A DNA stretch of 64,000 nt. It comes from Pirellulales bacterium (GTDB taxonomy: Bacteria > Planctomycetota > Planctomycetia > Pirellulales > JALHPA01). Below are positions 25,644-64,000 of the stretch, one piece after another; the stretch's first letter is position 1, and the number at the start of each line of letters is the position of its first letter. The position numbers and the translations under genes were made by a program. The notes beneath the pieces were generated by a model. The model did no database searches. It was not told the origin of the DNA and saw nothing but the letters and a program-made list of their open reading frames with translations. The DNA lies in the NCBI GenBank assembly GCA_963829655.1, contig CAWHJG010000002.1:5330786-5394785 (forward strand), given 5' to 3'.

Positions 25644-26204
25644 ATGACGCTACCGGTGCGCGCTCGTCGTTTACTTCCCCGCGGTTTTACGCTGATTGAA
25701 TTACTGGTTGTGATTGGCATCATCGGCATCCTGGTCGCGGCCCTGTTACCCGCCATCAACTATTCGCGCGCTGCCGCGCGGCGCGTGCAATGCGCGAGCA
25801 ACGTGCATCAGATCGGCGTGGCACTCGATAATTTCCTGACCGCAAAGAACGGTGGAAAATATCCCGACGTTGCCCAATTGCCGAGCGTTGTGCCTTTCCG
25901 GCCAAGCCTGGTGAAGGTGCTCGCGCCGTTCATCGAAGACAATCAAGCGGTATTTCTCTGTCCTGAAGATGAGAAGTTCTTTCCCGTCGAAGGACTGAGC
26001 TACGAGTATCGCAACAGCCGGCTGGCCAATAAGAACCGCAAGCAGGCGCTAAGGCGATCGAACGGCGAGCAGGTCAGCAGCACGCGAATGATCCTTCTCT
26101 ACGATTTTGAGTCGTTCCATGGACCCGAAGGCGAGCCAGGCGCACGAAACTACCTGTTTGCCGACGGTCATGTGGACAGCGAGGTCCCGGAGTTCAATTT
26201 TTAA
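25644..26204 (+). CDS. Short prepilin-type N-terminal methylation-motif protein (DUF1559-like)
   Basis: [37 protein letters not shown] near the start and ...[12 protein letters not shown] near the end. Confidence 0.8.
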
Positions 26205-31310: not shown

Positions 31311-31465
31311 TTGTAGCCGGGATTTTGGCTATTTGTCGAAGCACGGCTTTGGCGCCCCGTTTATCGCCAATTCACAGTCGCAACGGTTATACTCAAATCA
31401 AGCCGCAGATCGCAAAACCTCGCCTCGCTTGACACCGTTTTACCACCCTGCCCTGCACCGCTCGT

Positions 31466-34822: not shown

Positions 34823-34829
34823 GGTCTGC

Positions 34830-38212: not shown

Positions 38213-38387
38213 GGAGTGAAATCCGAATGACGAAGTTCAGGTCAATCAAGTTTAGGTCACGGAGGAAACTGCTTGCCTTGGTGACTGCGGCGGGTCACAA
38301 TTTTTGAGCAGGTTCTAACTGGGCGGCAGCCGGGACGGCTGCACCACAAAGCCAGCCGAGACGGCTGCATTACAAGTTGAGGTAAGC

Positions 38388-39772: not shown

Positions 39773-39810
39773 GGTTCAGGATTCAGAAAAGGCAGCCAGG
39801 CGAGCGCGAT

Positions 39811-41157
39811 ATGAAACGAAGACGATTCTTGAAGACCGCGGCAGCGACGGCGTTGACATTCGGGACACTATCGAGCGCGCGGGCGTTTGGCGCGAATGAG
39901 CGGGTTCGCGTGGGCTTGATTGGTTGCGGGACTCGAGGGCGGCTGGTGGGCGGGCTGGTGAGCCGCGTTGAGGGAGCGGAGATTACGGCGCTGTGCGATC
40001 TGTATGAGCCAAACCTGGCGCGGACGCGCGAGGCGATTGCGCCGCGGGCGGAGTCATTTCGCGATTTTCGCAAGCTATTGGATCGCGAAGACATCGACGC
40101 GGTCCTCATTGCCACGCCGGACCATTGGCACGCGATACCGACGGTTATGGCGTGTGCCGCGGGGAAGGACGTGTACGTTGAGAAGCCGCTGGGGCACAAC
40201 ATTCGCGAGGGTCAGGCGATGGTGGCGGCGGCCGAGAAGCACAAGCGGATCGTGCAGACGGGGACCCAGCAGCGATCTTCACCGCACTTTGAGCAGATGC
40301 GCGAGATTATCCGGAGCGGCGAGCTGGGGAAGGTGCACTTTGTGCGGATCTGGAACTTCACGAACATGTACCCGCGGGGGATGGCCGAGCGTGTGCGTGG
40401 TTTCACGCCGAGCGACGCCGACTGGGATTTCTTCCTGGGTCCGGCGCCGATGGTTGCATATGACCCCAAACGGTTCGTGGGGACATATCGATGGTTCTTT
40501 GATTATGCGGGTGGGATTTTAACGGACTTCGGCACGCACCGGATCGACAGCATGCATCAGGTGATGGGCGTGGACGCGCCAACGGCGGTGAGCGCGTTGG
40601 GGAGCCGATTTGAAATCGACGATGGGGGTGACACGCCCGACGTGTTGCAAGTGACATACGACTATCCGGGGTTTGTCCTGAGCTACGAGGCGTGTGCGTT
40701 GAACGGGCTGGGCGCAGGCGGGCAGACGCCGGGGCGGAAGTATTATCGCGCGATGGGAGAACACGATCGGCCCAACGGGCATGCTTACTATGGGACCAAT
40801 GGAACGCTGATGGCAGATCGAATTGGGTTTGAGATCTTTCCGGAGATGGAGCCGAGCGAAGGCGAGCGTCCGCGCGAGGCGGCGCGGCAGTATCGCATGA
40901 AGCGCAAGGAGGCAGCGGCCGAAGATACGACCGATCTGCACGTGAAGAATTTCATTGAGTGTGTGCGGTCGCGGGCGAAGCCGATCGCGGACGTGACGGT
41001 TGGGCACAAGGCGTCGAACGCGTGTCATCTGGGGAACATCGCGTACCGCACGGGGCGTAAGCTGCGGTGGGACGCGAAGAACGAGCAGATCGTCGGCGAC
41101 GCGGAGGCAGCGAAGCTGCTCGGGCGCGAGGCGCGGAGGCCGTGGGACATAATTTAA
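39811..41157 (+). CDS. Gfo/Idh/MocA family oxidoreductase with a Tat signal
   Basis: MKRRRFLKTAAATALTFG, VGLIGCGTRGR, LIATPDHWHAI, DVYVEKP and HKASNACHLGNIAYRTGRKLRWDA. ORF 39253-41157 is longer only because it reads the out-of-frame tail of the previous gene. Confidence 0.9.
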   Translation: MKRRRFLKTAAATALTFGTLSSARAFGANERVRVGLIGCGTRGRLVGGLVSRVEGAEITALCDLYEPNLARTREAIAPRAESFRDFRKLLDREDIDAVLIATPDHWHAIPTVMACAAGKDVYVEKPLGHNIREGQAMVAAAEKHKRIVQTGTQQRSSPHFEQMREIIRSGELGKVHFVRIWNFTNMYPRGMAERVRGFTPSDADWDFFLGPAPMVAYDPKRFVGTYRWFFDYAGGILTDFGTHRIDSMHQVMGVDAPTAVSALGSRFEIDDGGDTPDVLQVTYDYPGFVLSYEACALNGLGAGGQTPGRKYYRAMGEHDRPNGHAYYGTNGTLMADRIGFEIFPEMEPSEGERPREAARQYRMKRKEAAAEDTTDLHVKNFIECVRSRAKPIADVTVGHKASNACHLGNIAYRTGRKLRWDAKNEQIVGDAEAAKLLGREARRPWDII

Positions 41158-41170
41158 CGTTCGGCCGATT

Positions 41171-42239
41171 ATGAAAACAGAAATAAACCGGCGCGAGGCA
41201 ATTGCTGTGATCGGCGGCGGGGCGATTGCGTGCTTGCGTCGAGGCGTGCAGCGGCCTCTGAAGCGCCGAAGACGCGGTTGGGGATCGGGATGCATTCGTT
41301 CGGACTGCACTGGTCGATGGCCAGACGGAGCACGGAACAGGCGCCGTTTAGTGACGCGCTTGGGTTTCTCGATTTTTGTCACGGTCTGGGCGCGGCGGGG
41401 ATCCAAGTGGCGATGGGGGCGGATGTGGAATCGCGCGGGTCCACCGCGAGAAGGCTGAGAAGTATGGGATGTATTTGGAAGGGCAAACGTCGCTGCCGAG
41501 GGATGAGGCGGACGTTGATCGATTTGACGCCGATCTTCGAGCGGTGAAGACAGCGGGGGCGACCGTCGTTCGCACAGCGATGCTCAGCGGCAGGCGATAC
41601 GAGACGTTTGATTCGCTCGAGAAGTTCAAGGAGTTTGCGGAGCGGTCATGGCGCTCGTTGGTGCTGGCCGAACCGGTCGTGAGAAAGCAAGGTTTGAAGC
41701 TGGCGGTCGAGAATCACAAAGACTGGCTCGTGCCGGAACTAGTGTCGATGCTCAAGCGGATCGAGAGCGAATATGTGGGGGTGTGTATTGATACGGGAAA
41801 CAGCATTGCGCTTTTGGAAGATCCAATGGCAGTGGTAGAAGCATACGCTCCGTATGCGGTATCGACGCATTTGAAGGACATGGAGGTAAGCGAGTACGAG
41901 GACGGTTTTCTCTTGTCGGAGGTGCCGTTGGGAACGGGATATTTGGATTTGAAGAAGATGATCGAGACATGCCGGCGCGGTAATCAAAAGGTCCAGTTCA
42001 ATTTGGAAATGATCACGCGCGATCCGCTGCGAATTCCCTGTCGCACCGAAAAATTCTGGGCGACGTTCCCCGGGAGGCGCGGGGCACTTTTAGAGGAGGC
42101 TTTGACTGCGGTCAAAAAACGATCGTCGAAGCTGGAATTGCCCGTGCTGACAGGAATGTCCGACAAGGCAAAAGCCAGGAAAGAGGTGGACAACGTTCGT
42201 GAGTGTTTGGCCTATGCGCCGCAACAACTTGGGTTGTGA
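41171..42239 (+). CDS. Sugar-phosphate isomerase/epimerase (xylose-isomerase-like TIM barrel) with a Tat-like N-terminus; 2 frameshifts
   Basis: INRREAIAVIGGGA, then RLGIGMHSFG...FLDFCHGLGAAGIQ, then LKLAVENHKDW...VCIDTGNSIAL...VSTHLKD. Confidence 0.8.
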
Positions 42240-42529: not shown

Positions 42530-45500
42530 ATGGCCATGCTGCAAGCGCGCCGTCTGGCGCTGCGCCGACCGCGATTTCGTTTTGAGATTCTTGAGGATCG
42601 GACGCTGCTTGCGGCGTCGATCATTCGACCGGGGATTCCGGACTGGACCGAGCGGGGTCCTGGGCCGATTCAGAACGGGCAGGTCGAAGGGTTGACGAAC
42701 AACCCGGTGACCGGCGCAATCGAAGCGATCGCTGCTCATCCGACCAATGCGAATATCGTTTACATCGGCGCGACGAACGGCGGCGTGTGGAAAACGAGCA
42801 ACGCGACGGCGGCCAGTCCGGGCTGGACGACGACGATGGACCAGTATCCAACGTTGTCGATTTCGGCGCTGGCGATCAGCCCGTTGAATGCGAACACGGT
42901 TTATGCGGGGACCGGGCGAAGCAGCAGCGGGTTTCAGGGGGGCGGTGGATTTGGGCTGCTGAAGACCACCGACGGCGGCGACAATTGGACTCAGCTTGGC
43001 CGCGACACGTTTGATGGGATGCGGATCCGGACGATCATCCCGACGGTGAACGACGCCACATCTGGCCAGCAAATTGTGCTGGTGGCGGCGGAAGACACGA
43101 ACATTGGCGACGGCAACGATCGCGGCGGCGTGTTTCGCAGCGTGAACGGGGGCGTGGATTGGACGCGAGTGAATGGCAGCGGGATGTTGCCGCTGGGAAG
43201 CGCAACGCATCTGGCTATCGATCCGGCCGACACGACGATCATCTACGCGGCGCTGGCGGGCAACTATGATCTGAACAGCGACGGGATCGACAACGAAGGA
43301 CCGGCGCAAGCGTGGAGCAACAAAGGCGTCTACCGCAGCAACGACCGCGGCATGACGTGGACGAACGTGAGCGCGGGGATCGTGCTGCCGGCTGATACCG
43401 ACACTGTGGACAACGACGGCGATGGTTTGATCGACGTCCACGACCCGCGAGAGGGTTTGCAGATTTCCACGAAGATCGAGTTGTCGGTTAGCGCGGCGGC
43501 GGGGAGTCCGATATACGCGCTGGCAATTCAGGGGTCGGCCCTGCGGGGAGTGTTTCGCGGAACGAACAGCGGCGCGAATTGGACGTCGATCTCGAATCTG
43601 CCGGCGCTTGCACAGGGGACGTTGCACGTGTCGATGCTGGCGCATCGCACGAACGCAGATGTGTTCTACTTTGGCGGGGATGTATTTTCTGGCGGGCCGC
43701 CATGGGTGGGCGACATCTATCAGGTCACCGCCTCGACAAATACCTGGACGCCCTTCGTAATGGGTGGGGCCAACGGGTCGGCGCCGCACGCCGACTCGCG
43801 CGAGATGGTGTTTGACGCGAACGGAGATTTGCTGGAGGCCGACGACGGGGGACTGTATCGATTGGAAAACGCCGGGACGGCCGGCACGCGGCATTGGGAA
43901 AGCGTGAACGGCAACCTGCGGATCAACGAGCAAAACTCGATTGCTTATGACTCGTTGAGCGGAATTCTGTTTACTGGGAACCAAGACACGGGCAGCTCGG
44001 AACAGATTAGTTTTGGCAACACGACGTGGCGGCAGGTGAATCGTGGCATTGTCAGCGGCAACGGCACGGGTTCGCCGGTGAGCCGCTATATGCAGGGGGA
44101 CGGCAACTTCTCTCAGCAGGTGGATAACACGGTCGCCGGGACATCGCTGCGGTATTCGATGTCGAACAATTTTTCGGGCTTCTATCGGCGTTCGTTCAAC
44201 AGTTCGAACGTGCAACAGGATTTGCGGCCTGATGCAGGCGAGCCGGCCGGACAGGACATGCTAGACCAGCAAGTGATGCTGGCGGCCGCCGCCACGCCTG
44301 GGACGGCGCGAGCGGGCTGAATGCGGCCGATCAGGCGTTTGCCAACTTCGACCGCATTCCTTTTGTGCTCAACGCGACCGATCCGACGCGCATGCTGATC
44401 GGTTACAACGGGCTATATGAGGGCACGAATCGCGGCGATCTGATCACCGAGATTCCGGTTGTTGCAGCAGACGGGACCAGAAGGGTCACGGCGCTGGCAT
44501 ATGGCGGGCGGGAACTGAATACGACGACGCCCGATCCAAACGACACCATCGCAAAGTATGAGGTGTATTACGCGGCGCGTGGCAACGTGATCACCGTGCG
44601 CGCGTCGCTCAATGCGGCGGATCCGTTGCAATTCCGCCGCACGACGCCGAGCGGGGCGGCGACGATCACGGATATCAAGCTTGATCCATCGAACTGGCAG
44701 ATCGCGTACGCGGTAGACGCCACGCATTTATATAAGACGGTAGACGGCGGGCAGACCTGGGACGACGTGAGCGGCTTCTTGCCGATCCGCGAATTGCGGA
44801 CGCTGGAGCTGTATAAGACGGCAGCCGGCGATCACGTGGTGTTAGTCGGCGGCCAAGGCGGTGTTTATCGCACGACGAATCCAAACTTCCTCAGCACATG
44901 GACGGAGTTTGGCGCGGGGCTGCCGAACGTGCTGGTGACGGAGGTCGAGTACAACGCTCCGGCGAATCTGTTGTACGTGGCCACGTTTGGCCGAGGCGCG
45001 TGGACAATCTCGAACGCCAGCGCCGCGTTGAACCAGGCCAGCAAGCTGGAGATCAACGGAGACGGGGCGGCCGACACGGTGCGCCTGGTGCGAAACGCGA
45101 ACAACCCTCTAATGGTGGATGTTTTCGTGAACAACGCTGGGGTGAACCCTACGTTGCGGATTGCGATGCCCACGATGGAGCAGATTATCTTCCGCGGGGG
45201 CGGGGGGGACGACACGTTAACCATTGATACCACCAACGGCGTGATCGAACTGCCGCTGGACATCACGTTTGAAGGTGACGCAAACACCGACCACCTGATC
45301 ATCAACGGGCCGGCAATCAACTTTGGGACGTTTGGCCCGGACGGAGACGGATTCACGGTCACTGTCGCGGCGTCGGGGGAGGACAATCAGACCGTTAAGT
45401 ATCGCAACGTAGAGGATGTGCAGAACAGTTTGCTGGGAACGATCGATCGCCTGATCACCGTGGGCAGCGGATTGAACGCGATGACCAGCAGCCTGAATAC

Positions 45501-48500: not shown

Positions 48501-51500
48501 TTCGACACGGTGACGCCGCCGGTGAACACCGGAAACGCGAGCGTGGCCGGTGGAACGCCGGGCATCGACGATCCGCTGACCAGCTCTCAACTAGACACGC
48601 TGGGTAATGCATTTGCGATCAAAACTTACAATCTCGCCGGACTGGCGCAGAGTGCATTGAATTTTGGCGATCTGTGGACCGGGATCGACAAGCTGCTGGC
48701 GATCTTGCAGTCGGCGTTGAGCAATAAGGTGCTCTCGCAGAAGCTGCCGTTCTTGGGCGACAAGCTGAAGAACACAGTGGATTTTCTGGTCGATATTAAG
48801 ACGAAGTTGAATGGGGCCTCGTCCAGCACTTACGACACGGTGCGACAAACGCTGTTTAACCTGCTGGGTCCGGGCGCCGGCGGCCTGAACATCATCAAGG
48901 ACCAGAACTCGTCGGGCACCATCACGATTGAGGACATTGGCGGCACCAACAACGCACCGAACGAAATCAGCTTCGACTTGGACTTGGGAGGGACGCTGCT
49001 GAGCACCGACTTGCCGATCGATTTCGATATCGGCATTCCGGGACTTGGCCTGACGGTGCGTCCGCCGTCCGCGGTGAACGTGACGCTGGCGTGGACGTTC
49101 GATCTGAATGTTGGTCTCAGCCGCACAGACGGCTTTTACTATGTCACGTCCGACACAGAAGAGTTCGACCTCGATCTGTTAGTCTCGATCCCGGGGTTCA
49201 ACGCGGAAGGGCGCTTGGGATTTTTACAGTTGGATGTGACCGACGATCTGGCTTCGCCGTCGAACTTCAACTTAGGCTTTTCGGTCGATGTGAAGGACCC
49301 GATCGGCACGAATAATCGTATTTCGACAAGCGAGATCGCGCAGATCTTCAGCAACCTCGCTTCGTACAACCTGTCGCAGATTCTGGGGGCCAAGGCGACC
49401 GGCGTTGCTCATGTGAACCTGGACATCAACGTGAACTTCGGCTCGGCGAGCTTCCCGTCGCTGTTGGCCGATTTCATGCTCGACTGGAACTTCCTGAATG
49501 CGAGCACGGACGCGGGGGCGCTCGACTTCGGCAGCGCGCCGCAAGTAGCGTTTAAGAACATCCGGCTGGATGTGGGCAGCTACTTCGACAAGATGATTCG
49601 GCCGATACTCGATACGGTGTGCGATGTTCTGGAACCGATCCGGCCGATCATCGATATCTTTACGACGCGGCTGCCAGTGCTCAGCGATATCGCGCCGCGC
49701 GGGCGATTGTGGATACCAACGGCGACGGCAGCGTCACGCTCTTGGAGTTGGCGCAGAAGTTCAACAGCCCGTATGTGGGATTCATCGAGGCGGCAGTCTT
49801 CGTGGCACAGCTTTGCGATCAGATCGACGGCATCGGCTCGGGCAACGTTTACATCCAATTGGGGGACTACGATCTAGGCGGCACCGATCCGCGGTCGGTC
49901 GGCAGCCTGACTACGGTGACGCCGCGACTGACCAGCGCGGTGGCAGATACGCTCGCACAATTGGAAGCATTGACGGGCGAGTTCGCCGACGATGCGTACG
50001 CGTTCTTGCAGGACGTGGCTGGCATGCCGGGCGAAGGGGCCGCCAAACCAATCAGCTTCCCGCTGTTTGAGAACCCGGCGTCGGCGGTCAATTTGCTGTT
50101 CGGACGGGACATCAATTTGTTCCTGTTCGACATGCCGCCGCTGAAGTACGACCTCGTGATGGAGATTTTCTTCCCGTTGCTTGGCCCCTTGGGCATCCAG
50201 TTGGTCGGCGAGCTGCACGCATTTGCGGACTTTGCTTTCGGCATGGACACGCGCGGGCTGCGGCAAGTAATCGATACCGGCGATTTCAGCAAAGTGTTTA
50301 ACGGGTTTTTCGTGAGCGATCGGAAGAACGCGGACGGCACCGGACCGGATGTTCCCGAGATGGGGTTGACCGGAAGCATCGATGCCTACGGCGCGATCGA
50401 CTTGGTGGTAGCGTCGGCTGGCGTCGGTGGCGGACTCGCGGCGGAGGTGTACGCGAACCTGCTCGATCCCGATCCGGACGGACCCGGCGGTCCGTTGCAG
50501 CCGGACGGGAAGGTCCACTTCGATGAGATCCTCGAAAACTTCCCCGAATGCGTGTTTGAGTTCACCGGCAAGTTTACGGCGGGGCTGAGCGCGGATCAGC
50601 GTGGGCGTGTGGCCGCTCAAGAAAACGTGGAAGTTCAAGATCGCGGAAGTGACGCTGCTCGACTTCACTTATTCCTGTGTTGACCCGCCGACGCCGCCGG
50701 TGCTGGCGACGAAGACCGATTTCGACACGCTGCGATTGAACATGGGTCCGAATGCGGATGCTCGCGGGCCCGGCCATGGCAGCGGCGGCGACGATGAGAA
50801 GTTCGACGTGCGGCAGAAGTTGGACGATGTCGGCAACCCGGTGCCTGGCATGGTCACCGTGCAGTGGAAGCATTACATCCAGGAATTCAGCGGCGTCGCT
50901 GATATTTTTGCCGACGGCGGCGGTGGCAACGATGAGATATTGATCGCGCAGGACCTGCCGGTGACGAGCAACATGTTCGGCGGCAGCGGTGACGACACGA
51001 TGGTGGCCGGCGGATTGGCGGCGACGCTGCGCGGCCAGGACGGCAATGACACGATCACCGGCAGCCCGCAGAACGATTTTATCTATGGCGACGATCACGA
51101 CGATTTGTTGATCGGCGGCCCGGGGGCGGACCGAATCGAAGGCGGGGCGGGCAACGATGAGCTGCAAGGGCACGCCGGCGCCGACCTGTTATTTGGCCAA
51201 GCGGGGAACGACGCGTTGATCGGCGGGGAAGAAAACGATTTCATGGTCGGCGGCGCACCGAACGAAGCCGGCGAGGACAAGGACGAGCTGTTGGGCGACG
51301 CTGGGAACGACACGATGTTGGGCGGGGCGGACGACGACGTGATCGAGGGGAGCGAGGGAGACGACCAACTCTACGGCGAAGCCGGCAACGACTTTATGCA
51401 GGGGGACGCCGGCAGCGACACGCTCGAAGGCGGATTCGACCATGACAATATTGCCGGCGGAGATGGAGTTGACACTCTGCGCGGTGGCGGCGGCAATGAT

Positions 51501-54500
51501 CGACTAGACGGCGACGGCAGTAACGATCAACTGTTTGGCGATGCCGGCACAGACACTATTCGCGGGGGAACCGGCGACGATCAGCTTTTTGGCGGCGACA
51601 ACAACGATCGGCTGTATGGCGATTCGGGAGTTGACACGCTGCGTGGCGAGCTAGGTGATGACGAACTGTACGGCGGGCTTGGCGTCGATACTCTTCACGG
51701 CGACGCGGGGGCGGACTATCTGAGCGGCGGGTCGTCGAACGACTTCCTGTTTGGCGGAACGCAGAATGACACCCTGTATGGTGATTCGGGGAACGACCAG
51801 CTTTCTGGCGACGATCACGACGACACGCTGCATGGCGGCACCGGCGTTGACACGATGCACGGCAACGCCGGCCAGGACAAGCTGTACGGCGGCGATCAGG
51901 ACGACGTGTTGTTTGGCGAGGCCGGCAATGACCAAATCTATGGCGATGCGGGTAACGACAATGCGCAGGGCAACACCGGCCTCGACACGATGTACGGTGG
52001 CCTGGGGAACGATACGCTTGCCGGCAACGAAGACAGCGATACGATCCATGGCGACGACGGCAACGATTTGATTTCGGGCAATGTTGGCGGCGACTTTTTG
52101 TGGGGTGACGGCGGCGCCGACACGATCGACGGCAACGAAGACGGCGATGAGATCCACGGCGGCGCCGGGATCGACTTGATCCACGGCAACACGGGCGCCG
52201 ACACGATCTTCGGCGACGGCGACGCCGATGTAATCTTCGGTGACGAGCAACAGGACACGATTCAGGGCGGCGATGGCCCCGATCGGCTATACGGCAACGA
52301 CGACATCGACACGATTCACGGCAATGCCGGCGACGACTACGCCGAAGGAAATGCCGGCGGAGATCTGATGTTCGGTGAAAGCGGTCGCGACGTGATGTAT
52401 GGCTTGGCCGGGTTGGACATCATGCACGGCGACGAGGGAGAAGATCACGTTTACGGTGGAGTGGACGATGATCAGCTCTTTGGCGACGAAGGCAGCGATG
52501 TTCTGGAAGGGAACGACGGCAACGACATGTTGTCGGGCGGCGAAGAGGGGGATTTTCTTTTCGGCAACGCCGGGGCGGACACGCTTGCGGGCGATGCAGG
52601 AGACGATCAGCTCGACGGCGGGATTGGAATCGATACGCTTCAAGGTGGCGACGACAACGATCTGTTGTTTGGTGGCGGTGGCGTCGGCGACGTGCTGCAC
52701 GGTAACGCCGGAGATGATCGCATTTTTGGTTCGGACGATGGCGCGGACGACCCGAATTTGTTGGATGCGATTCGGTTTGGCGATGTAATCGACGGTGGAA
52801 CCGGTAAGGATGAAATCTATGGCCTTGGCGGCGCGGACGATATACAAGGTGGAGACGACAACGATCTAATCGACGGCGGCGCGCGGGGTGATCTGGCGCG
52901 CGGCGGATTGGGACGCGACACGATCTACGGCGCTGTCGGCAACGATAATCTGCAAGGTGGCGACGACAACGATCGAATCTTCGGTCAGCAAGGGGCCGAT
53001 CTGATTTCCGGAGAAGCGGGCGACGACATTCTCGATGGCGGCACCGGCACGGACAATATCTCGGGCGGCACGGGGAACGATGAGCTGCTCGGCGGCGGAG
53101 GCGCGGGAGATGTGCTCGACGGCGGCGACCAAGACGACATTTTGCGCGGCAGCAACGACGGCGCGGATGTGATGACTGGCGGCGCGGGCGCGACCGATTG
53201 CTTGGAAATGCCGGGAACGACTCGCTGGGCGGCGGCACGGGCGATGACATTCTGGAAGGCGGCCTCGGCGATGACACGCTCAGCGGCGACGCGGGCAGCG
53301 ACGTGCTCTTAGGCAACAATCAGCACGACACGCTTTACGGGCATTCTGTCAGCGGGTTGGGCGACGACAATGCAGTCGATTATGTGTATGGCGACTTTGG
53401 CACGAACGCAGACGAAGCTGGTTCGGGGCGCGACCGTTTGTTTGGCCAAGGGGGCAATGACCTGCTGTTTGGCGAGTCCGACGACGATTTTATCGACGCC
53501 GGCGCTGGCACGAGCAACATCGTTGATTTTGGCACTGGAGAATCGGGGACGCCGAACGACTTTGTGCCGCCGACACCGACGGCAAACCCGCCGCTCACCG
53601 CTGTCGATATTGATCGAGCAGCCGCTTCGCTGCCGACGGGGGCTGATGGACGTGGCCGCTGGGTCGAATATGCGCTTTCGGCATCCGGCCGCGGAACCAG
53701 CGGCGACGCGGGTCTAGCGCTCGAGCCGAGCACCGTTGCCAGTGTAGCCGGCGGTCAATACGTTGCCTGGTCGGACTCGCGGAACGGCAACTTCGAGATT
53801 TATCTCGCGCGGCATATGGCGGGCGCATGGCAGCAGTTGTCCAACAGCGCAGAGCGCGGCGGCATCAGCGCAACGCTTGGTTCTCGCGCAGACCATCGAT
53901 CGCATTGGATGCCAGCGGCGTGCCGCACGTGGCCTGGACCGAGGCGACAGCCGCCGGCACCGACATTTATGTTGCACGTTACGATGCGGCTGCGAATGGC
54001 GGGTTGGGAGCGTGGGTGGCGGTTGGTTCGTCGCTGTCGGCCGGCGGAATCAGCGCAACCGGCGGCGCTGACAATGCATCGTTGTTGTTCACCTCGGCCG
54101 GACCGGTGGTTTCGTGGCTCGATTCGTCGTCGGGCGTGACGCAGGTGTATGTGCGCCGATTCACGGCGGGGACGTGGCAGGCTGTGGGCGCAAGCGGTGC
54201 AAGCGGCGGTGGCGTGTCGAACTCGTTGACCGGCGTGAGTGAATTATCGATGGCGGCGGACGGCGCGAAGCTGGCCGTAACCTGGACGCAAACGGTTGGC
54301 AGCGGCCGCGAGATCTATTTGCGCGAATACGCGGGCGTTGCGTGGAATGAGCTTTCCGCAAGCGCAATGGGTGGCGGGTTGAGCAACACCGTCGGTGACA
54401 GCACGTCGCCCACGGTTGCCTATCATTCCGGGTCGCCGTATGTCGCTCTGGCGCGACAACACGGACGGTCGCTACGCGATTTTTGCGCGGCGTCACACGG

Positions 54501-57500
54501 GCGCGGCATGGGTGACCGCCGGTGCGAGCGTCAACGTGAGCGGCTTCCATTCCGGCGCGATGAATGAGGCCAGTCGGCCGAAGCTGCAATCGTTGGGCGG
54601 CCAGTTGTTTCTGATTCACGTATTCAACATTCCGGACGACACACCGACGAAAGATTCGCAATCCCCGCCGGCGATCGAGGCACTGCACGCAATGCGGTGG
54701 AGTGGCTCGGCGTTTGTGGAACACTTGCCGGGCGATGCCCGCGGACAAGGAATCAGCCCAACGGGCGGCGTGATCCAGAACCTGGCGGTGTCGGTGGATA
54801 CGGCAGGGCGTCCGTTTGTCGCGTGGCAAGATGCGCGGCACGGAACGCCTGAGGTTTATGTTCGCGGCAACACCTTCAACGTCGGCACGATTTATTTTGT
54901 GAACGATGCATCGTTAGTTGGTGATATTGCGACGACCGCGGCTGGCGCGTCGGGCAACACCGGACTTACGCCGTCAAGCCCGAAGGCATCGGTTCAGCAA
55001 GTGCTGGACACGTTCAACGTAAATCCGGGGGACGTGATCTTTGTCGATACCGGGATGTATAGCGCGGCGATCACGATCGGCGGCGACGACGAGGGAGCGA
55101 CTATTATCGGCGCGATTGGGCAGACGGCAACCTTTCAGCAACTGGTAACGGTCGGCGTGCCGAACGTGACGCTGGAGCGGATCAATCTATTCGGTGGCGC
55201 GACGGTGACGGCCAACAACTTCACGGCGACCGACAATCGCTTTTATGGAGCCTTGCTGCTAAGTGGAGGTGACGGCGCACAGCTCTCGCACAATTTGATC
55301 GAGTCCACTCTCACGCTAGCCGGCGGCGTGAGCGGTGCGATCATCCAGCACAATGAACTTGGCGGAAACGGTGACGCGATCGTGGTATCGGGGGCGGTGG
55401 GGATCACGCTGCTTGGCAACCGGATCCTGCATGATGACGACAAGGGGATTCGAATTGCGGCGCCGTCGAGCGGAATCATCCGCGGAAACCGGATTGAAGG
55501 CGGCGACGTGGGCCTGGACATCGCCGCAGCGTTTAGCGGGATGATTGAGGGCAATGAGATCAGCGGAGTCAGCATCGGCGTGAACTATTCCGCGCCCGCC
55601 GCATTGAGCGGCAACCGTATTCACGGTGCTTTTGTTGGTGTTGAGAGCACGGTCGCGGGAACCACGAATGGTTTTGGTTTCGTTGGAACGACCGAGCCGA
55701 ACGAGATTTATGACAACACCACCGGGGTGCAGCTCACCGGGCAAATGCGCCACCAGTACATCCATCACAACACGACAGGCGTGGCCGGATCGGGACTGCT
55801 CGACAGCGGCGATCTGGAACACGCCAACCGGATCGAGCACAACACAACGGGCGTCAATTTCAGCGGACCCGTCCTGTTCAACCGGATTGCAAATAACGAA
55901 GTCGGAATCGTGGCCGTCAATGGACAGCTCATCGCACACAACCTGATTTATCGCAACGCGCAGACCGCGCTGCGCGTGCAGGGTCGCAACGACGTACGAA
56001 TCTTCAACAACACGTTTTATGCACCGGCGGGGGACAATATCCGCATCGACGGATCGTCGCGCGAGGTGGAGATTCGAAACAATATCCTGTGGGCCGAGGC
56101 CGGCTATAACATTCACGTTGCCGACAACAGCACGGCCGGTTTCTGGAGCGACTACAACGTGCTGCATGCCAGCGGCACGGGCAAGCTGGTGTATTGGACG
56201 CGCGATTTCACCGACATCCTGGATTGGCAGGAAGATGTCTTCCGGTTCGACCTCAATTCGATCGGTTATACGGTGGTCAACCCGCTGTGGTCCGAGCCGC
56301 GGTTCTTCAATCGCGGCAACGATGATTATCGCGTATTCGACCAGGTTGCGCGGCTGCGGTTTACCAGTCCTACCATGGATGCCGGCGACCCGCGGGCCGA
56401 TCAGGCGTTGCCTGCGTACTACAACAACCTGCTCACGAACCCTGGATTTGAGAGTGGGATCACCGGCTGGACGGCAACGCCGAGCGGCGGAACGCGCTCG
56501 ACCAATCCGACGCCGTGGAGCGGCGGAGCGTATTTCTTTGCACAATCGAACGCGGTCACGTCAGTCGAGCAGACGGTGGACTTGATCGCGAAGGGGTACA
56601 CCGCGGCGCAAATCGACAACTCAAACTTGTCGTCCGTCTTTGGTGGGCGAGTGCGAAGTGCGGCCGAGGCACTGCCGGACCGGGGCGAGCTGACGCTGAT
56701 CTACGTGGATGGAGTGGGTACGGAGATCAACCAGATTACGGCCAAGGCAGTGAACGTAGCAGACCGCTGGGAGTTGGTGGGAACGCGGCAGCCGGTACCC
56801 GTGGGGACGCGCACGGTCAGGCTGCGCTTTACGGCCATCACACCGACCGGTGGCGAGAACAACAGCTATCTCGACAGCGCGTTTTTGTACGTCCATCCCA
56901 ATAGTGAAGCGCCGAACCTGGGCGGCTACGGCAATACAACTCACGAACAAGCTCAGAACCTCAATCAGCATCTCGTAATGCGCTCGCCCGACCTATACAA
57001 GGACTGGGAGCGCGACAAGCCGCTGACCATCCGCTGGGATTCGTTCGGGAATACAGCCAACGGTCCAGTCAAGATTGACTTGTATCAAGACGGCGCACGG
57101 GCCGCAATTCGTCACGAACATTGTTCCGGTTACGGCGGACACGGGTGAGTTTCCCTGGATCGCCGGCAACAGCGGCGTGAACTTCGCCACATATGGCTTG
57201 CGGATTCAGGTTTCGCTGATCGGCAATCAAACGATCCATGACCGCAGCACTGAAACGTTTACGGTGCCGGAGAATACTAACACGTTCTTCGTCAACGATA
57301 GCAGTCAAGCAAATGATCAATACACATCAACAATCGGTGGCAATCGCAATACCGGTAAGCTCGCCGACCGGCCGAAGCCGTACCCGAACAATGTCCTTCG
57401 CATCTACTCGCTCGGGCCATCGCAGACGCTGTTTGTCGATACGGGCGACTACCGTTTGCTCAGCCCGTTGGTGTTGTCGAACGTTGTCGGAGTTGGCGAC

Positions 57501-60500
57501 GACGAGGGTTTCACACTGACAGGACCCTCGATCGCGGGCCGTACCGCGCTGTTGCATCACGCGAACCAGTTTACGGTAGCGCCGCTGGTGACACTGATCG
57601 ACGCCGACTTCGTGACGCTCGCGCACTTGACGCTGGATCGCGGGCAATACGGACTGTGGGCGCGCGACAGCAGCACGAATCTGGCGTTGACGAATATCAC
57701 GGTCACCAACAGTACGCTTGACGGATTCCGCGTCGAAGGCGGCTCCACCGGGCTGTTGTTTGATCGGCTGACCAGTGACAACAGCGGCCGCTACGGAATG
57801 GTGCTGTTCAGCCCGCTTCAGGCATTGCGGAACAGCGTGGCATCGAACAGCGGATTGACCGGCATTTATTTTGATCAGCCGGGGAACGTGTCAGTCGAAC
57901 GGACCGAAGTATTTGGCAACGATGAGTATGGGATTTACATCATCAACGCGGCCGGAACAACCTCGGTGATTGGCGACGCCGATTTATCGCAAGGCGACGG
58001 CAACAAGGTCCACGACAACGCGCGCGACGGAATCTATGCCAGCGGCTCCGTCGTCGTCGCGGGAAATCACGTCTATAACCACCTCGGGACGAGCGACATT
58101 GGCATCGGCGCCTACAACGGAGCGCAAGCGATCCGCAACGCCGTTCACGACAACTATCTGGGCATCGACGCTCAAAGCGGCGGTCAGATAGTCGAGAACC
58201 GCGTGTATCACAACACAACCACCGGAGTTCAAGGTGGAGGCTCTTCCGCACAGTTGTTGGGTAACGTCATCTACAGCAATGCGGTTGGCGTGCTGTTGAT
58301 CTACAACTTCGGGGGATCGCTGGTCAATAACCTGATCTATTCCAACCTGACGCACGGCATCCTTGCACAGGCTTACTTCGCTATCGGCACCAATATCGTC
58401 AACAACACCATCTATCAGCCGACTGGAACCGGCATACGCATCGACAGCGGATCGCGCAATGTGCGTCTGCGGAACAACATTATCTGGGTGCTGAGCGGGT
58501 TTGGAATTTCGGTCGCGAACGATGCGCAAAGTGGTTTCGCGAGCGACTACAACCTGTTGTATGTCACCGGAACCGGTCAGATCGCGGAATGGCAAGGCAT
58601 CGGGCGGCCGACATTGATCGCCTGGCAAAACGCCGGATTCACGGACGGAAACAGCCTGTCGCAAGACCCTTTGTTCGTCGATCTCGACGGCGCGGACAAT
58701 CAACTTGGGTGGGTTTCGCCCGCGAACGATGGCCGCGACGACGATTTTCACCTGAAGAGCCTTTATGGGAGTTTCCACGGTGGCGCGCTGGCGCCGGCGG
58801 TAAACGCTGTCTCCGGCTTGCCACAGTTTCTGACCGCAACGTTGCTGGTCGATGCGTCGCAATCGCCGGCAATCGATCGCGGCGATCCGCTTGATTCACC
58901 GATTAACGAACCGGCGAACAATGGTGGCTATGTCAATCTTGGCGCTTATGGAAACAGCGCCCAGGCGTCGAAGAGCCCCGCGGAATACGTTCTCGTTACG
59001 CGCGCCGACGGCGGCGAAGTCTGGCCGGCAACGCAGACCTTCCCGATCCGTTGGCGGACGAATCGCGATCCATCACAATATGCGCTCCGCTTCGACGGGG
59101 TGGACGATTATGTGGGCATGGGCGATCCGGCGAACAACTCGCTTGATATCGGCCCCAATGGAACGCTTGAAGCGTGGGTGCGGTTTGACCAGCTACCCTC
59201 CGGCAACCTTTACACGATCGCCAGCAAGGATGCGGGTGGCGGCGGAACCAATAAGTGGATTTTTGGTTATGGCAACAGCTACAGCAACGTGACCAATTCC
59301 ACGTTCCTGCACATCAATCGAGCGGCGGGCGGGTCGGTATTCTTGACCTCGAATCCGTGGACGCCGGTCATTGGCCGCTGGTATCACCTGGCGGTCGCGA
59401 AGAGCGGAGACAATTACAGCTTCTATCGCGATGGAGTGCTGGAAGGCACGCCGACGACCACCGTGCAAGTACCCGATGTGGCCGCGCCGTTCGAAGTGGG
59501 GCGCGGAGGGCGATTTCCATTTCCGCGGTTCGATCGACAACCTGCGGCTGTGGAACGTTGTGCGCACGCAGGTTGAGATTCAAAACAACATCGATGAAAC
59601 ATTGCCACCAGCCACGTCCGGATTGGCCGGATATTGGCGGTTCAACGATGCTTCGGGCACGACGGCGACGGACGGCACCGCCAACGCAAACCACGGCACG
59701 CTGGGCGGCGGCGTAGTCGCGCGGCAACCCGCTTGGACCGCCTCCGATGTGCCGTTTGGCAAGGTGGACGTGGAGCTGCTCGATGGAGCAACACCGGTGG
59801 CATTATTGGCCGACGACACGCTGAATGACGGCGAATTCGTGTGGACGATTCCGGAAGCCACGCCGCCGGGGACAAACTATCGTATTCGTGTAACGCGCGT
59901 GGGGACGGCCGTGACCGATACGAGCAACGCGGCCTTCACGGTAACGCTGCCGATCACCGTGTACTACGTGAACGACGGGACGGTCGAGGCGGGCGATTGG
60001 ACGACCGCGCCTGGCAACGACGCGAACGACGGACTGTCGGCGGCGACACCCAAGTCGTCGATCCGCGCGGTTTTGGAGACTTATGACCTGGATGCCGGCG
60101 ATGTGGTTCGTGTGGATGCCGGCACGTATGCGATTGGAACGAACATCATCCTCGCCGCGAACGACGCGGGCGTGAAGATCGAAGGTTACCACGAGGCAGC
60201 GTTCCCAACGCGGCGGGCTTTGATCAATCGCGGCAACGTAACCGCCGGCAGCTTCGCTTTCGAATTACAGAACGCGGACGATGTGATTCTGGATTACCTG
60301 CACGTCACTGGGGGACAACAGGGGATATACGCTTCGGCGAGTTCTGACAGCGACCGTGTGACGATTACCAACAGCGTGTTGTTTGGCAATTCGAGTGCTG
60401 GCGTGTATTTGGAGGGTACGAACGACTTTGCGACAGTCAGCGGCAACCGGTTCTTTGGTGTATTGGACAACGCGTCGGGGAACGACAATCAGCCGTATGG

Positions 60501-63500
60501 CGTGATCCTGACGGGCAACGACGGGACGGTGACGCTCAACACGCTCATCGGCGGCGGCTCGAATGAAGGGATCACCGTCGGCGGCCTGCGGCACACGGTC
60601 ACTGGCAACGACGTCAGCGGGCACAACTCGGGCATCTATGCTTACAGCGCGGGACCGGGTGCGGATCGGACCACGGTCAGCGGCAACCGGGCGCACGACA
60701 ATGCTTCGTGGGGTATTTACGCCAGCGGCAACATCCTGGTCATCGGCAATGATGTTTTCGGCCAGGAGGCTCAGAACGCCCACGGAATGTATATCGCTGC
60801 GAGCGAAGCGCGCGGCAACCTGGTGCACGACAACTGGCACGGGCTCCAGATCAGCGGCAGCCTGGTCGAGGACAACACGATCTACAACCAGCTACAGACG
60901 GGCGTGAACGCGTACGACTCCGCAGTGCTTCGCGGCAACCGGATTTACGACAGCGCGACCGGCGTGTACGTGGCCTACAACTATTCCGGCGAGGTGGTCA
61001 ATAACCTGATCTACGATCAAAGGACCACCGGTGTTTTGGTGGAGGCCTACTTCGGCCTCGGCACACGGATCACAGGCAACACGATCTACCAGCCGGGCGG
61101 GGCCGACGCGGTACGATTGCAGGCCAACACGCTCAATGTGACGTTGGTCAACAACATCCTGTGGGTGGGCGGCGGTTATGCGTTGTCGGTCGATCCCAAC
61201 AGCCAGCGGGGGTTGGTCAGCGACTACAACCTGTTCTACACGACCGGCACGGGCAAGCTGGCCTTGTGGGAGAACCGCGACTTCACCAGCCGGGTGGATT
61301 GGTTCTACGAAGTCGGCTTCGATGAGCACAGCCGGGTGGCCGATCCGCTGTTTGTCAATCCGGCGGGGGCTGACGGGATTTTGGGTTATCGCGCGGGCGG
61401 CTTGTCGGCCAGCTACTACAACAATATCAACTGGACCGATCCGCCGGTGCTGACGCGGATCGAGCCGCTGATCAACATGAATCTGGGGGGCGCAAGCCCG
61501 CAACCCGGCACGGTCAATGCGGACAACTTCTCGGTCCGCTGGCAGGGGCAAGTGTTCATCCCGGCCGACGGCCAGTACACGTTCTACACGCAGAGCGACG
61601 ACGGCGAGCAGTTCTTTGTCGACGGCAACTTGCTGATCAACCAGTTGGTTTGGGACGGCGGGTTGGAAAACTCGACCACGCTGGTGTTGACAGCCGGCTG
61701 GCATACGATCCGCTACGACCTGCGCGAGAACACCGGCATGCGCGGGCGGAGCTGCGTTGGAGCGGTCCGGGGATCCCCAAGCAGATCATCCCCGAGCCGT
61801 ACCTGGCGCCTTTGGGCGGTCCGCCACCGCTCAACGCGGGCGCGGACGACGACTTCCATCTCTTGTCCGGCTCTCCGGCGATCGACGCCGGCAGACTGCA
61901 GTATTACTACCTGGAAGAGCAGTTCCCCAACGGCGACCGCGCGGACATTGCTGCCTATGGCAACACGGCGCAAGCTTTCCTCAGCCCCCAACAGATTGTG
62001 CAAGTGCTCTCACCGAACGGGCTGGAGAAGTTCGAGCAAGGGCAGCAGGTGCAGATCGATTGGCGGAGGGCGGGATTGACACAACAGCGGCCGGTGGCGT
62101 TGATCAACGCCGGCGGTCCGGCGTTGGACAACTATCTGGGGGATCGCTATAGCACGGCGCCGTCCACGTTTACCTCGATTGGCAACGCGATCGACCTGAC
62201 GGGCGTGACCGATCCTGCGCCGGCGGCTCTGTATCAAACATTGCGCTATACGTCGAGCGGCGCGGTGGGTTTCCGCATGGGCTACGAGTTGCCGGTTCCC
62301 GACGGCAGTTATACGGTGCGGCTGCACTTTGCCGAGCCGACCTACAACACCGTCAACCAGCGGAAGATGGACATCTACTTGCAGGGCGCGTTGGTGCAGA
62401 ACGATTACGACGTGCGGGCGGCTGCCGGCGCGATCTACAAGGCCACCACGCTCACGTTCCCGGTGACCGCCAGCGCCAATGGCGGGATCTTGTTGGAGTT
62501 GGAGAACGTGCTCAACCAGGCGTTCATCAACGGGATCGAGATTTTGGCGGCCAACCCGCTGGGTCAGGCCAACCCGACGGTGAACCTGGAGCTGTCGAGT
62601 AATGATGGCGCCAGTTGGAGCCCGTTGGCCAATAACCTGACGATGGATCGGTTTGGCCGCGGCAGCTATCTGTGGAACGTTCCAGCCGGGCAGGCCGAAA
62701 GCAGCCAGTACCGGATTCCGCGGTGGCCAACGTAGGAGGCACAGTCCAAGACACCAGCGACGAAGCGTTCCTCGTCGCCAACAGCGGACAGCACTACTAC
62801 GTCAACGACGCCTCCACCGCCGGAGACTCCTTCACCTCGGCAATCGGGAATAACCTCAATAGCGGGAAGTCACCAAGCCAGCCGATGGAGAGCTTGTTTG
62901 CGCTGTTCTCTGCCTACGATCTCAGCGCGGGCGACGTCATTCACGTGGATGCTGGAACGTACATCCAGATCAAGAATATTCTAATTACGAACCAAGACAG
63001 TGGAGTTCGAATCGAGGGTCCGGCGACAGGGGTTGCGCCTATCAGTCGCGGCAATACCAACGCTAGCCAGTACACCTTCGAGCTGGTGAACGCGGATGAC
63101 ACTACTTTTGATCGGTTGCACGTCACTGGGGGACAACAGGGGATATACGCTTCGGCGAGTTCTGACAGCGACCGTGTGACGATTACCAACAGCGTGTTGT
63201 TTGGCAATTCGAGTGCTGGCGTGTATTTGGAGGGTACGAACGACTTTGCGACAGTCAGCGGCAACCGGTTCTTTGGTGTATTGGACAACGCGTCGGGGAA
63301 CGACAATCAGCCGTATGGCGTGATCCTGACGGGCAACGACGGGACGGTGACGCTCAACACGCTCATCGGCGGCGGCTCGAATGAAGGGATCACCGTCGGC
63401 GGCCTGCGGCACACGGTCACTGGCAACGACGTCAGCGGGCACAACTCGGGCATCTATGCTTACAGCGCGGGACCGGGTGCGGATCGGACCACGGTCAGCG

Positions 63501-64000
63501 GCAACCGGGCGCACGACAATGCTTCGTGGGGTATTTACGCCAGCGGCAACATCCTGGTCATCGGCAATGATGTTTTCGGCCAGGAGGCTCAGAACGCCCA
63601 CGGAATGTATATCGCTGCGAGCGAAGCGCGCGGCAACCTGGTGCACGACAACTGGCACGGGCTCCAGATCAGCGGCAGCCTGGTCGAGGACAACACGATC
63701 TACAACCAGCTACAGACGGGCGTGAACGCGTACGACTCCGCAGTGCTTCGCGGCAACCGGATTTACGACAGCGCGACCGGCGTGTACGTGGCCTACAACT
63801 ATTCCGGCGAGGTGGTCAATAACCTGATCTACGATCAAAGGACCACCGGTGTTTTGGTGGAGGCCTACTTCGGCCTCGGCACACGGATCACAGGCAACAC
63901 GATCTACCAGCCGGGCGGGGCCGACGCGGTACGATTGCAGGCCAACACGCTCAATGTGACGTTGGTCAACAACATCCTGTGGGTGGGCGGCGGTTATGCG
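42530..64000 (+). CDS. Giant multidomain secreted or surface protein (at least ~7,150 codons, 3' end outside the window), read through about 13 apparent frameshifts
   Basis: Fourteen abutting or overlapping same-strand ORFs continue into each other's reading frames at every junction. The N-terminus is MAMLQARRLALRRPRFRFEILEDRTLLAA (LEPR-XLL-type motif). Domain content is listed in the sub-features below. Confidence 0.7.
42780..45010 (+). other. BNR/Asp-box beta-propeller region of the giant protein
   Basis: Asp-box-like motifs KTTDGGDNWTQ, RSVNGGVDWTR, RSNDRGMTWTN, GTNSGANWTS and KTVDGGQTWDD. Confidence 0.75.
45010..50900 (+). other. Uncharacterised region of the giant protein built from 3-4 divergent ~330-400-aa modules
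   Basis: Recurring motif pairs are GFLEVTVEDA (~46040) with KIPLVDKTLGEILGG (~46490), and GFLDVRMTED (~47250) with KIPIINKKLGEIVDL (~47710). A third pair is GLIDLGLSGD (~48240) with KLPFLGDKLKNTVDFL (~48750), and a fourth is GFLQLDVTDD (~49215) with RLPVLSDI (~49670). EF-hand-like loops are ANNDGKLTLQEIV and DTNGDGSVTLLELA. Confidence 0.5.
50910..53530 (+). other. RTX (hemolysin-type calcium-binding) nonapeptide repeat block, about 870 aa
   Basis: An uninterrupted series of GGxGxDxL/I/F-type repeats, for example GGAGNDELQGHAGADLLFGQAGNDALIGG and [28 protein letters not shown]. Confidence 0.9.
53654..54870 (+). other. Six to seven ~55-60-aa repeats, probably a beta-propeller of an unnamed type
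   Basis: Recurring pattern ...VAW.D....G..EIY[LV].R...G.W..[LV]G.S...GG[IV]S... Examples are YVAWSDSRNGNFEIYLARHMAGAWQQL, HVAWTEATAAGTDIYVARYD, VTQVYVRRFTAGTWQAVG, REIYLREYAGVAWNEL, YAIFARRHTGAAWVTAG and FVAWQDARHGTPEVYVRG. Confidence 0.55.
54887..56404 (+). other. Right-handed parallel beta-helix (PbH1/NosD-like) module 1
   Basis: TIYFVNDAS...PGDVIFVDTGMY..., then repeated GN.I....GI.. coils (GNRILHDDDKGIRI, GNRIEGGDVGLDI, GNEISGVSIGVNY), then IRNNILWAEAGYNIHV...SDYNVLH...SPTMDAGDP. Confidence 0.8.
56420..56900 (+). other. CBM4/9-like (galactose-binding-like jelly-roll) domain
   Basis: NLLTNPGFESGITGWTA...AYFFAQSNAVTSVEQTVDL...VRLRFTAI...YLDSAFLYV. Confidence 0.6.
57282..58965 (+). other. 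Parallel beta-helix module 2
   Basis: TFFVNDSS...LFVDTGDYRL..., coils (GNHVYNHLGTSDIGI, RNAVHDNYLGIDA, ENRVYHNTTTGVQ), LRNNIIWVLSGFGISV...SDYNLLY...SPAIDRGDP. Confidence 0.8.
59076..59590 (+). other. LamG / concanavalin-A-like lectin (Laminin_G_3-type) domain
   Basis: ALRFDGVDDYVGMG...GTLEAWVRFD...WYHLAVAKSGDNYSFYRDGVL...FRGSIDNLRLWNVVRT (crosses one frameshift). Confidence 0.75.
59959..61395 (+). other. Parallel beta-helix module 3
   Basis: VYYVNDGT...AGDVVRVDAGTYAIG...LHVTGGQQGIYAS..., coils, LVNNILWVGGGYALSV...SDYNLFY...DPLFVNPAGADGILGY. Confidence 0.8.
60299..61182 (+). repeat. Copy 1 of an exact direct repeat of at least 884 bp
   Basis: Base-for-base identical, by visual comparison of every line, to 63117-64000 (offset 2,818 bp). 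Confidence 0.9.
61399..61805 (+). other. PA14 domain inserted in the tail of beta-helix module 3
   Basis: GLSASYYNNINWTDPP...ADNFSVRWQGQVFIPADGQYTFYTQSDDGEQFFVDGNLLIN...GWHTIRYDLRENTG..AELRWSGPG. Confidence 0.8.
62094..62552 (+). other. Malectin-like carbohydrate-binding domain
   Basis: VALINAGGPAL...ALYQTLRY...YTVRLHFAEPTYNTVNQRKMDIYLQGALVQNDYDV...AFINGIEILA. Confidence 0.75.
62792..64000 (+). other. Parallel beta-helix module 4 (truncated by the window end)
   Basis: HYYVNDAS...AGDVIHVDAGTYIQI...LHVTGGQQGIYAS..., identical to module 3 from 63117 onward. Confidence 0.8.
63117..64000 (+). repeat. Copy 2 of the exact direct repeat of at least 884 bp (runs into the window edge)
   Basis: Identical to 60299-61182. 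The 320 bp upstream of each copy are homologous at the protein level but clearly diverged. Confidence 0.9.

Follow-up and report, generated by a model that had tools for sequence, protein, structure and literature searches.

A probable case of recombinational homogenisation between tandem modules of a planctomycete giant gene

The question raised by this locus is how two stretches of one gene can be identical at every visible base, while the homologous sequence immediately preceding each of them has diverged to about half identity. The locus lies at the right-hand end of a 64,000-nucleotide stretch of DNA from an uncultivated Pirellulales bacterium (GenBank assembly GCA_963829655.1, contig CAWHJG010000002.1, positions 5,330,786 to 5,394,785 of the forward strand), here called the window, and is part of a giant modular gene of probably about 26 kb, which encodes right-handed beta-helix modules and runs on past the last base of the window. 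The best explanation, and one that we regard as very probably correct, is an ancestral in-frame tandem duplication within this gene, of which one block has subsequently been homogenised by recombination. In what follows we set out the evidence for this explanation, weigh it against the alternatives, and then consider the gene in which the repeat resides and the systems that it resembles.

The repeat itself can be read directly from the window, where comparison of the two copies, which lie 2818 bp apart, gives a match at 884 of 884 bases. The copies belong to a longer repeated block, designated U, and are:

60299-61182, + strand: copy 1, the part whose twin is visible, beta-helix core (884/884 against 63117-64000; Pfam Beta_helix; AlphaFold model).
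63117-64000, + strand: copy 2 of block U, truncated at the window edge (identical to copy 1; end predicted at ~65.69-65.71 kb by analogy with the two related contigs described below).

The match extends to the final base of the window, 64000, and an exact repeat of this length cannot be due to chance; a repeat scan of the window found no further long exact repeats. The left boundary is sharp, the bases just 5' of the copies being C at 60298 and T at 63116, such that identity begins at the L|HVTGGQQGIYAS codons. Upstream of this point the ungapped identity is 53% over the nearest 60 bp and ~20-30% beyond, a gapped alignment of the 300 bp before each copy gives 50% nucleotide identity, and the ~110 amino acids encoded just before each copy are 45% identical (E 5e-31). 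An earlier reading of the window, the original prediction, had described identity up to the window end, some 320 bp of diverged homologous sequence before each copy, an exact switch point at these codons and an offset that is not a multiple of three, and in all four respects it is borne out (2818 = 3 x 939 + 1, copy 1 lying in frame 1 and copy 2 in frame 2).

Whether such a repeat is a peculiarity of one genome depends on its state in relatives. The databases searched contain only two close ones, both metagenome contigs, namely L001 (ERZ25039565 contig_83013, 275,837 bp) and L002 (ERZ25039494 contig_31757, 42,672 bp); the protein clusters P0001 and P0019 hold only proteins from these contigs, and other homologues are far more distant (30-37% identity in a set with one genome per GTDB species, 28-37% in JGI metagenomes). 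None of the homologous proteins is identical to its window counterpart, and an exact look-up of a presumed gene at 62094-62732 gave no match. The window is collinear with L001 over 50178-64000 at 89.8% identity and with L002 at 87.2%. In both contigs the repeat recurs at a spacing of 2816-2821 bp, as in the window, and comprises a block of ~2.57 kb that is near-identical within each contig, its limits corresponding in the alignment of copy 1 with copy 2 to window coordinates 60299-60308 on the left and 62874-62887 on the right; outside the block the identity between copies is ~50% before and ~60-70% after it. The resulting layout can be written a-U-x-U-y, where a, x and y are homologous pieces of ~245 bp, corresponding to about residues 37-117 of each beta-helix, which are never homogenised. 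The original prediction of a repeated module is thus upheld for the repeat, and its homogenised extent is corrected to ~2.57 kb rather than the full 2.82-kb period. In window coordinates the components are:

59959-60298, + strand: segment a, position-specific N-terminal beta-helix rungs of copy 1 (50% nucleotide and 45% amino acid identity to the segment before copy 2; 90% to its orthologues in L001 and L002).
60299-62874, + strand: full block U, copy 1 (extent taken from L001 and L002).
62875-63116, + strand: segment x, lying between the blocks and specific to its position, covering about residues 37-117 of the beta-helix in copy 2 (homogenised in none of the genomes).

Block U contains the beta-helix core from LHVTGG onwards, a PA14 domain (61399-61698), a malectin domain (62100-62471), an immunoglobulin-like (Ig-like) spacer and ~30 codons from the start of the following beta-helix. 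Its boundaries are located within the beta-helix domain (near residues 37 and 117 of the AlphaFold model) and not at domain borders, as expected from recombination guided by DNA homology. Segment x is 89-93% identical to its orthologues, 50-54% identical to a, and 67-71% identical to y, its equivalent in the third module, and in the window its reading frame carries on into copy 2. This diverged third module follows the two block copies in L001 as well as in L002; by analogy, the identity of the block in the window genome should continue to ~65.69-65.71 kb, and beyond it a diverged segment y and a third beta-helix core, ~64% identical to the block, would be expected. The comparison of relatives proposed in the original prediction yielded the within-genome identity but no difference in module number, and the hotspot for module-number variation suggested there is not evident among them: two block copies are present in each of the three close genomes (in the window as far as visible), the variation in copy number that is common in, albeit not required of, repeat families undergoing concerted evolution being absent among them.

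The evidence for homogenisation within genomes comes from the opposite behaviour of flank and block. In an identity matrix of the upstream 300 bp, orthologues are 89-95% identical, whereas copy 1 and copy 2 share only 50-54%. Within the 884-bp block this relation is inverted, the two copies of the same genome being 100% identical in the window, 99.5% in L001 and 96.6% in L002, against 84-95% between genomes; over the whole block the copies are 99.9% identical in L001 and ~95%, in a mosaic pattern, in L002. Four-sequence site patterns give the same picture. For the window and L001, the informative sites grouping the sequences by genome and by position number 0 and 141, respectively, in the upstream 400 bp and 132 and 0 in the block, while for the other two genome pairs the corresponding ratios are 0:132 and 0:142 in the flank and 116:0 and 95:0 in the block. 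Downstream of the block the L001/L002 quartet returns to grouping by position (3:112). Because the flanks follow orthology, the duplication must be ancestral.

The detailed differences between copies and between genomes indicate, in addition, that homogenisation occurred more than once. A comparison across the entire block reveals 6 substitutions between the L001 copies, of which 3 sit at the left edge, together with 3 indel columns in an error-prone run. Between the L002 copies there are 135 substitutions, distributed as a mosaic in which identity is 100% for ~260 bp and thereafter 80-99% per 100 bp. At the 131 scorable sites that vary between the L002 copies, the two copies of L001 match copy 1 of L002 in 118 cases and copy 2 in 9, which suggests that copy 1 has overwritten copy 2 in L001. 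The window agrees with the L002 copy-2 base at 35 of the same sites, and hence the L002 differences represent inherited variation and not noise. The ends of the tracts vary by 6-13 bp between genomes: on the left they lie at 60299 in the window, ~60305 in L001 and ~60308 in L002, and on the right, in window coordinates, at 62874 in L001 and 62887 in L002. At the left end copy 2 of the window encodes LHVTGG where L001 and L002 encode LQITGG. Since the tract ends differ, the homogenising events were independent. A further mark of the window lineage is found within both of its copies:

60765-60777, + strand: in-frame 6-nucleotide insertion, window lineage only (in both copies, the second at ~63589, 2818 bp apart).

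At window positions 60771 and 63589 both L001 and L002 have 6-nucleotide gaps. The locus hence displays the features of concerted evolution, namely a head-to-tail direct repeat, copies closer to each other than to their orthologues, orthologous flanks, and lineage-specific or mosaic tracts, and taken together these data show an ancestral duplication followed by independent, repeated homogenisation in each lineage. The gene conversion or unequal recombination between beta-helix modules put forward in the original prediction gains support from the orthologous flanks, the grouping of the block by genome and the lineage-specific tract ends. What took place is homogenisation of a duplication that predates the split of the three genomes, and not a new duplication.

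In mechanistic terms, an in-frame tandem duplication of ~2820 bp (940 codons), older than the split of the window genome, L001 and L002, would have provided two U copies, between which RecA-type homologous recombination would repeatedly homogenise the ~2.57-kb block. The mode could be non-reciprocal gene conversion, cycles of unequal crossover (expansion and contraction by unequal sister-chromatid exchange), or both. Tracts would halt where the diverged segments a, x and y (~50-70% identity) cannot support strand exchange, and since the divergence of the flanks is too high for this process, a sharp switch from diverged to identical sequence at LHVTGG is what would be expected. The last homogenising event in the window lineage would have been recent enough to leave zero differences over 884 bp. 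A one-step origin by unequal crossover, in which copy 2 would combine the left part of module 3 with the right part of module 1, is rejected, because x and y are only 67-71% identical.

A different view of the boundaries would be that segments a, x and y, comprising the cap helix and the first rungs, are kept different by selection as position-specific determinants of specificity or assembly, with the remainder of the module free to homogenise, the sharpness of the boundaries then reflecting selection against tracts that cross them in addition to sequence heterology. We consider this unlikely. A separate observation concerns the substitutions relative to L001, for which the ratio of codon positions 1 and 2 to position 3 is ~0.7-0.77 in 59600-64000 as against 0.24-0.29 in 50700-59400, a region comprising RTX repeats and older modules; the higher ratio in the duplicated modules suggests relaxed or diversifying selection on the distal modules. 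If selection on a, x and y did operate, the ratio of ~0.7 would reflect diversifying selection at the distal, outward-facing end of a giant surface fibre.

The perfect identity could also be a product of assembly or polishing, the source having one copy, or two differing copies, with the consensus of one written over the other. The assembly is indeed error-prone (~11 frame breaks in 21.5 kb), the identity reaches the very edge of the window, and the window copies are known from the assembly consensus. Yet the a-U-x-U-y layout is found at equal period in two other assemblies from different samples, and L002 retains its 135 between-copy substitutions, so that a pipeline of this kind does not automatically homogenise repeats; moreover, segment x shares 89% identity with its orthologues and its frame continues into copy 2, and the left boundary in the window lies 6-9 bp away from that in either relative, a codon-consistent shift. 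The suggestion that an assembler copied the consensus of one module onto another is weakened by the two-copy layout with x in both relatives and by the substitutions in L002, and an artefact as the source of the repeat appears quite unlikely, while it is possible that a few genuine differences between the window copies were lost in polishing.

Several considerations nevertheless weigh against the explanation by ancestral duplication and recombinational homogenisation. The identity in the window derives from the assembly consensus, and polishing could have rendered the copies identical. Sequence is visible only to 64000, so that the right end of the block in the window genome, near 65.7 kb, is inferred from the relatives. 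About one frame-breaking error would be expected in 2 x 884 bp, and finding none is unremarkable (P ~0.4), and the same absence would follow equally well if pooled reads had been used to call both copies. The accession numbers of L001 and L002 are neighbours, and their contigs follow one naming scheme, which makes a bias from a shared pipeline conceivable. Finally, gene conversion and cycles of unequal crossover are indistinguishable in these data.

Another question is whether the repeat lies within one functional gene at all, since the coding sequence changes frame at several points between and around the copies. The chain to which it belongs, and the frame changes nearest to the repeat, are:

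42530-64000, + strand: giant modular gene, open at the window end (overlapping long stop-free stretches, ~11 frame changes).
59503-59507, + strand: frame change from 3 to 1, a 2-nucleotide deletion private to the window (CGCG--GAGGGC against CGCGCCGAGGGC in L001 and L002).
61735-61760, + strand: frame change from 1 to 3 in block copy 1, at the GC-rich run GCGCGCGGGCGG (run length differs in 5 of 5 available copies).
62716-62720, + strand: frame change from 3 to 2, a 1-nucleotide deletion private to the window (GGATTC-CGCGG against GGATTCGCGCGG in L001 and L002).

Across the 21.5 kb of the chain (42530-64000) there are ~11 such breaks, the others lying at about 44.3, 47.0, 49.7, 50.6, 53.2, 53.9, 54.4 and 57.1 kb. 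If they were real, the chain would be a decaying pseudogene or a row of separate open reading frames (ORFs), and in favour of this possibility, the frame is lost near 61740 in each of the three assemblies, all of which contain several breaks. However, neither relative shares the window's breaks at 59505 and 62718, and other breaks are found in L001 or L002 alone, each assembly carrying its own 1-2-nucleotide indels in GC-rich runs. At the shared site the length of the GCGCGCGGGCGG run differs in each of the five copies, and only copy 2 of L001 reads through it in frame as ENTGSARAELR, thereafter having an extra C of its own; the run would thus be an error hot spot that mimics a conserved frameshift, and a programmed or conserved frameshift at 61735-61760 is rejected on the same grounds. 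In each frame segment most substitutions between the window and L001 fall at third codon positions (with counts at positions 1/2/3 such as 24/13/133, 28/19/163 and, for 57200-59400, 35/12/197), and this bias on either side of every break implies coding constraint on both sides. Window 50178-57082 corresponds to one ORF in L001, and the region 59-64 kb has no promoter-like sites and no excess of terminator-like sites, for which reason separate genes with signals of their own are rejected. Real breaks are therefore very unlikely.

The most likely reading of the breaks, judged from these sequence comparisons, is that they are single-base consensus errors, of a kind typical for long-read assemblies, in a gene of ~26-27 kb; the ORFs between 42.5 and 64 kb would then represent one gene with consensus indels and not a dozen genes, and correction would be expected to give a single ORF of ~8,700 codons. 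Of the two frameshifts that the original prediction placed between the copies, the difference in frame is real, but real frameshifts are not indicated, one-base consensus deletions being most likely; assuming such errors, restoring the two missing bases (at 61735-61760 and 62718) would give a true period of 2820 bp, or 940 codons. That the locus is a single gene of more than 5 kb, a planctomycete giant gene, holds only if the breaks are errors, a conclusion that is supported, not proven. In the window assembly as a whole, frame-breaking indels of 1-2 nucleotides occur about once per 2 kb, mostly in GC-rich runs of the CGCG/GCGC type; the giant gene shows up as ~12 ORFs, and a tRNA-ligase gene near 7-8 kb (7155-8075) also looks split. 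This indel pattern may reflect systematic long-read consensus error, possibly tied to a methylation motif.

More distant giant genes show a related pattern. In three further assemblies (L013, L014 and L015) the homologous genes contain three tandem modules of ~1.88 kb, each consisting of Ig-like and beta-helix parts, and these are the only homologues in which the module number differs. Their modules show sharp switches between ~100% and 40-80% identity, and in L015 (8600-14240) the first ~700 columns of the middle module are those of module 3 and the remainder those of module 1, which reads as a textbook product of unequal crossover between neighbouring modules. Such patterns imply that recombination between adjacent modules recurs in the gene family. 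Transposase genes occur a few kb downstream of the giant genes in L013 (14395-15331) and L015 (18581-19954), encoding DDE_3 with an IS630-type helix-turn-helix, and rve. A single very recent duplication by unequal crossover in the window lineage, without earlier duplication or recurrent conversion, would account for the 100% identity expected of a brand-new copy and has a precedent in the new modules created by unequal crossover in L015, but it is extremely improbable, since the two-copy layout and the orthologous segment x are common to L001 and L002, divergence between the L002 copies reaches 13-20% per 100 bp in places and so exceeds the 7-14% between the window and L001, which places the duplication before the split, and the identity, which should span the whole 2.82-kb period, stops ~245 bp short of it in L001 and L002.

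The gene itself can be followed as overlapping long stop-free stretches on the + strand, in shifting frames, from ~42.5 kb to the window end. Collinearity with L001 places its end ~4.7-5.4 kb beyond the window, for a total of ~26-27 kb; in L001 the last large gene of the chain ends at 18570 and is followed by a 240-amino-acid ORF without domain hits up to 19340. The N-terminus at 42530 reads MAMLQARRLALRRPRFRFEILEDRTLLAAS (42530-42620), which we take to resemble an export-associated N-terminal motif common in giant and exported planctomycete proteins, and which marks the likely true start of the gene. Large unannotated regions separate this N-terminus from the RTX block. The domains that precede the duplicated modules are:

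50589-54136, + strand: RTX calcium-binding nonapeptide repeats, mid-gene (Pfam HemolysinCabind, 27 stretches, E 1e-138; repeat family D1, in multiples of 27 nucleotides).
54923-58700, + strand: two older, diverged beta-helix modules, 54923-56300 and 57291-58700 (Pfam Beta_helix, NosD, Laminin_G_3).

Pfam thus identifies four beta-helix modules 3' of the RTX block, each preceded by an Ig-like domain of the Kre9_KNH type, with LamG after module 2 and PA14 and malectin after module 3, which is copy 1. The older modules share with the copy-1 module only 63-72% identity over a 65-nucleotide motif (family D4). Elsewhere in the window there are two weak direct-repeat pairs of 70-73% identity (families D3 and D5), one at 11132-11266 and 11490-11624 and one at 706-807 and 25680-25781; the latter begins within the DUF1559 gene, perhaps indicating a paralogue.

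Directly 5' of the giant gene (38319-42236) lie two GFO/IDH/MocA oxidoreductase genes and a gene for a xylose-isomerase-like TIM-barrel protein, and a link in sugar metabolism between these and a glycan-binding giant protein is possible. The window also carries planctomycete hallmarks, notably a PSCyt1/PSCyt2/PSD1 protein adjoining a DUF1501 protein (31433-36232) and a DUF1559 protein with an N-terminal methylation motif (N_methyl, 595-1716), which clearly fix its taxonomic context; homologues bearing organism names belong to Planctomycetaceae, Stieleria and Planctomycetales.

As to the product, the AlphaFold model of 59947-61345 is a right-handed beta-helix with a predicted local distance difference test score of 92.4. 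In Foldseek searches it matches AlgE4/AlgE6 epimerase A-modules, PL6 lyases, phage tailspikes and GH136 (E 6e-7 to 1e-4, template modelling scores, TM, of 0.2-0.5), the AlgE A-module structures 2pyh and 2pyg being among the top matches (E 3.9e-6, TM 0.33-0.48) at 12-15% identity, that is, at the level of fold only. The catalytic motif of AlgE is of the YG(F/I)DPH(D/E) type, and neither DPH nor DP[HY] occurs in any of the four beta-helix modules, for which reason an AlgE-type mannuronan C-5 epimerase is rejected. For the PA14 part the match is to the corresponding domains of RsgI3 from C. thermocellum (6qe7, E 8.5e-23), which are polysaccharide-sensing, and the malectin part weakly matches carbohydrate-binding malectins. 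A giant exported surface protein that binds or modifies glycans is a reasonable reading of this predicted domain content.

This organisation invites comparison with known secreted proteins. Like the window gene, the Azotobacter AlgE epimerases combine right-handed beta-helix (A) modules with RTX (R) repeats in a modular secreted protein, but the window protein is far larger and additionally has PA14, malectin, LamG and Ig-like domains. The giant RTX adhesins exported by type I secretion, of the LapA, SiiE and MpIBP type, are likewise giant repetitive proteins with RTX repeats and lectin-like domains, but in the window gene the RTX block is mid-gene and followed by ~15 kb of coding sequence for beta-helix modules, and is not C-terminal. 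Type I secretion genes (ABC transporter, membrane-fusion or TolC-type) adjacent to the gene were found neither among the selected window ORFs scanned nor downstream in L001 and L002, where the neighbours are DLH, Fer2 and MoCoBD genes. On the basis of the domain order and the neighbouring genes, a classical C-terminal RTX adhesin is rejected.

With respect to the repeat, DNA-identical units are familiar from Gram-positive adhesins such as Rib/alpha C, Esp and Aap/SasG. Tandem repeats that evolve in concert within a single gene have been described for the spidroins of spider silk (PMC3933166) and for the yeast FLO adhesins (PMC3512402). Common to these and the window repeat are head-to-tail in-frame units, copies closer to each other than to their orthologues, mosaics with sharp switches, and recombinational homogenisation; the window repeat differs in its very long unit (2.82 kb, four domains), in having two copies, and in the ~245-bp piece that remains position-specific in all genomes. 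Genes larger than 5 kb, termed giant genes, are abundant across the Planctomycetes phylum (PMC5177795, citing Reva and Tummler 2008), and the window gene resembles them in its taxonomic context, its ~26-kb coding chain and its predicted exported, surface-type domains. The giant-gene literature covers gene sizes and domain contents (PMC5177795), and in a limited search we found no description of module homogenisation in planctomycete giant genes.

What, then, does the repeat imply for genes of this kind? It is real and well supported, and represents an ordinary kind of event that reveals no new mechanism, so that its value is more practical than conceptual. At such a locus short-read assemblies will collapse or break. 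At orthologous positions the window is 84-85% identical to its relatives inside the block (73-79% in places), as against ~90% in the flanks, and phylogenies and orthology calls based on such modules mislead. At the same time the contrast between flanks and block provides a clean internal control, which indicates that the modules of planctomycete giant genes undergo ongoing recombinational homogenisation.

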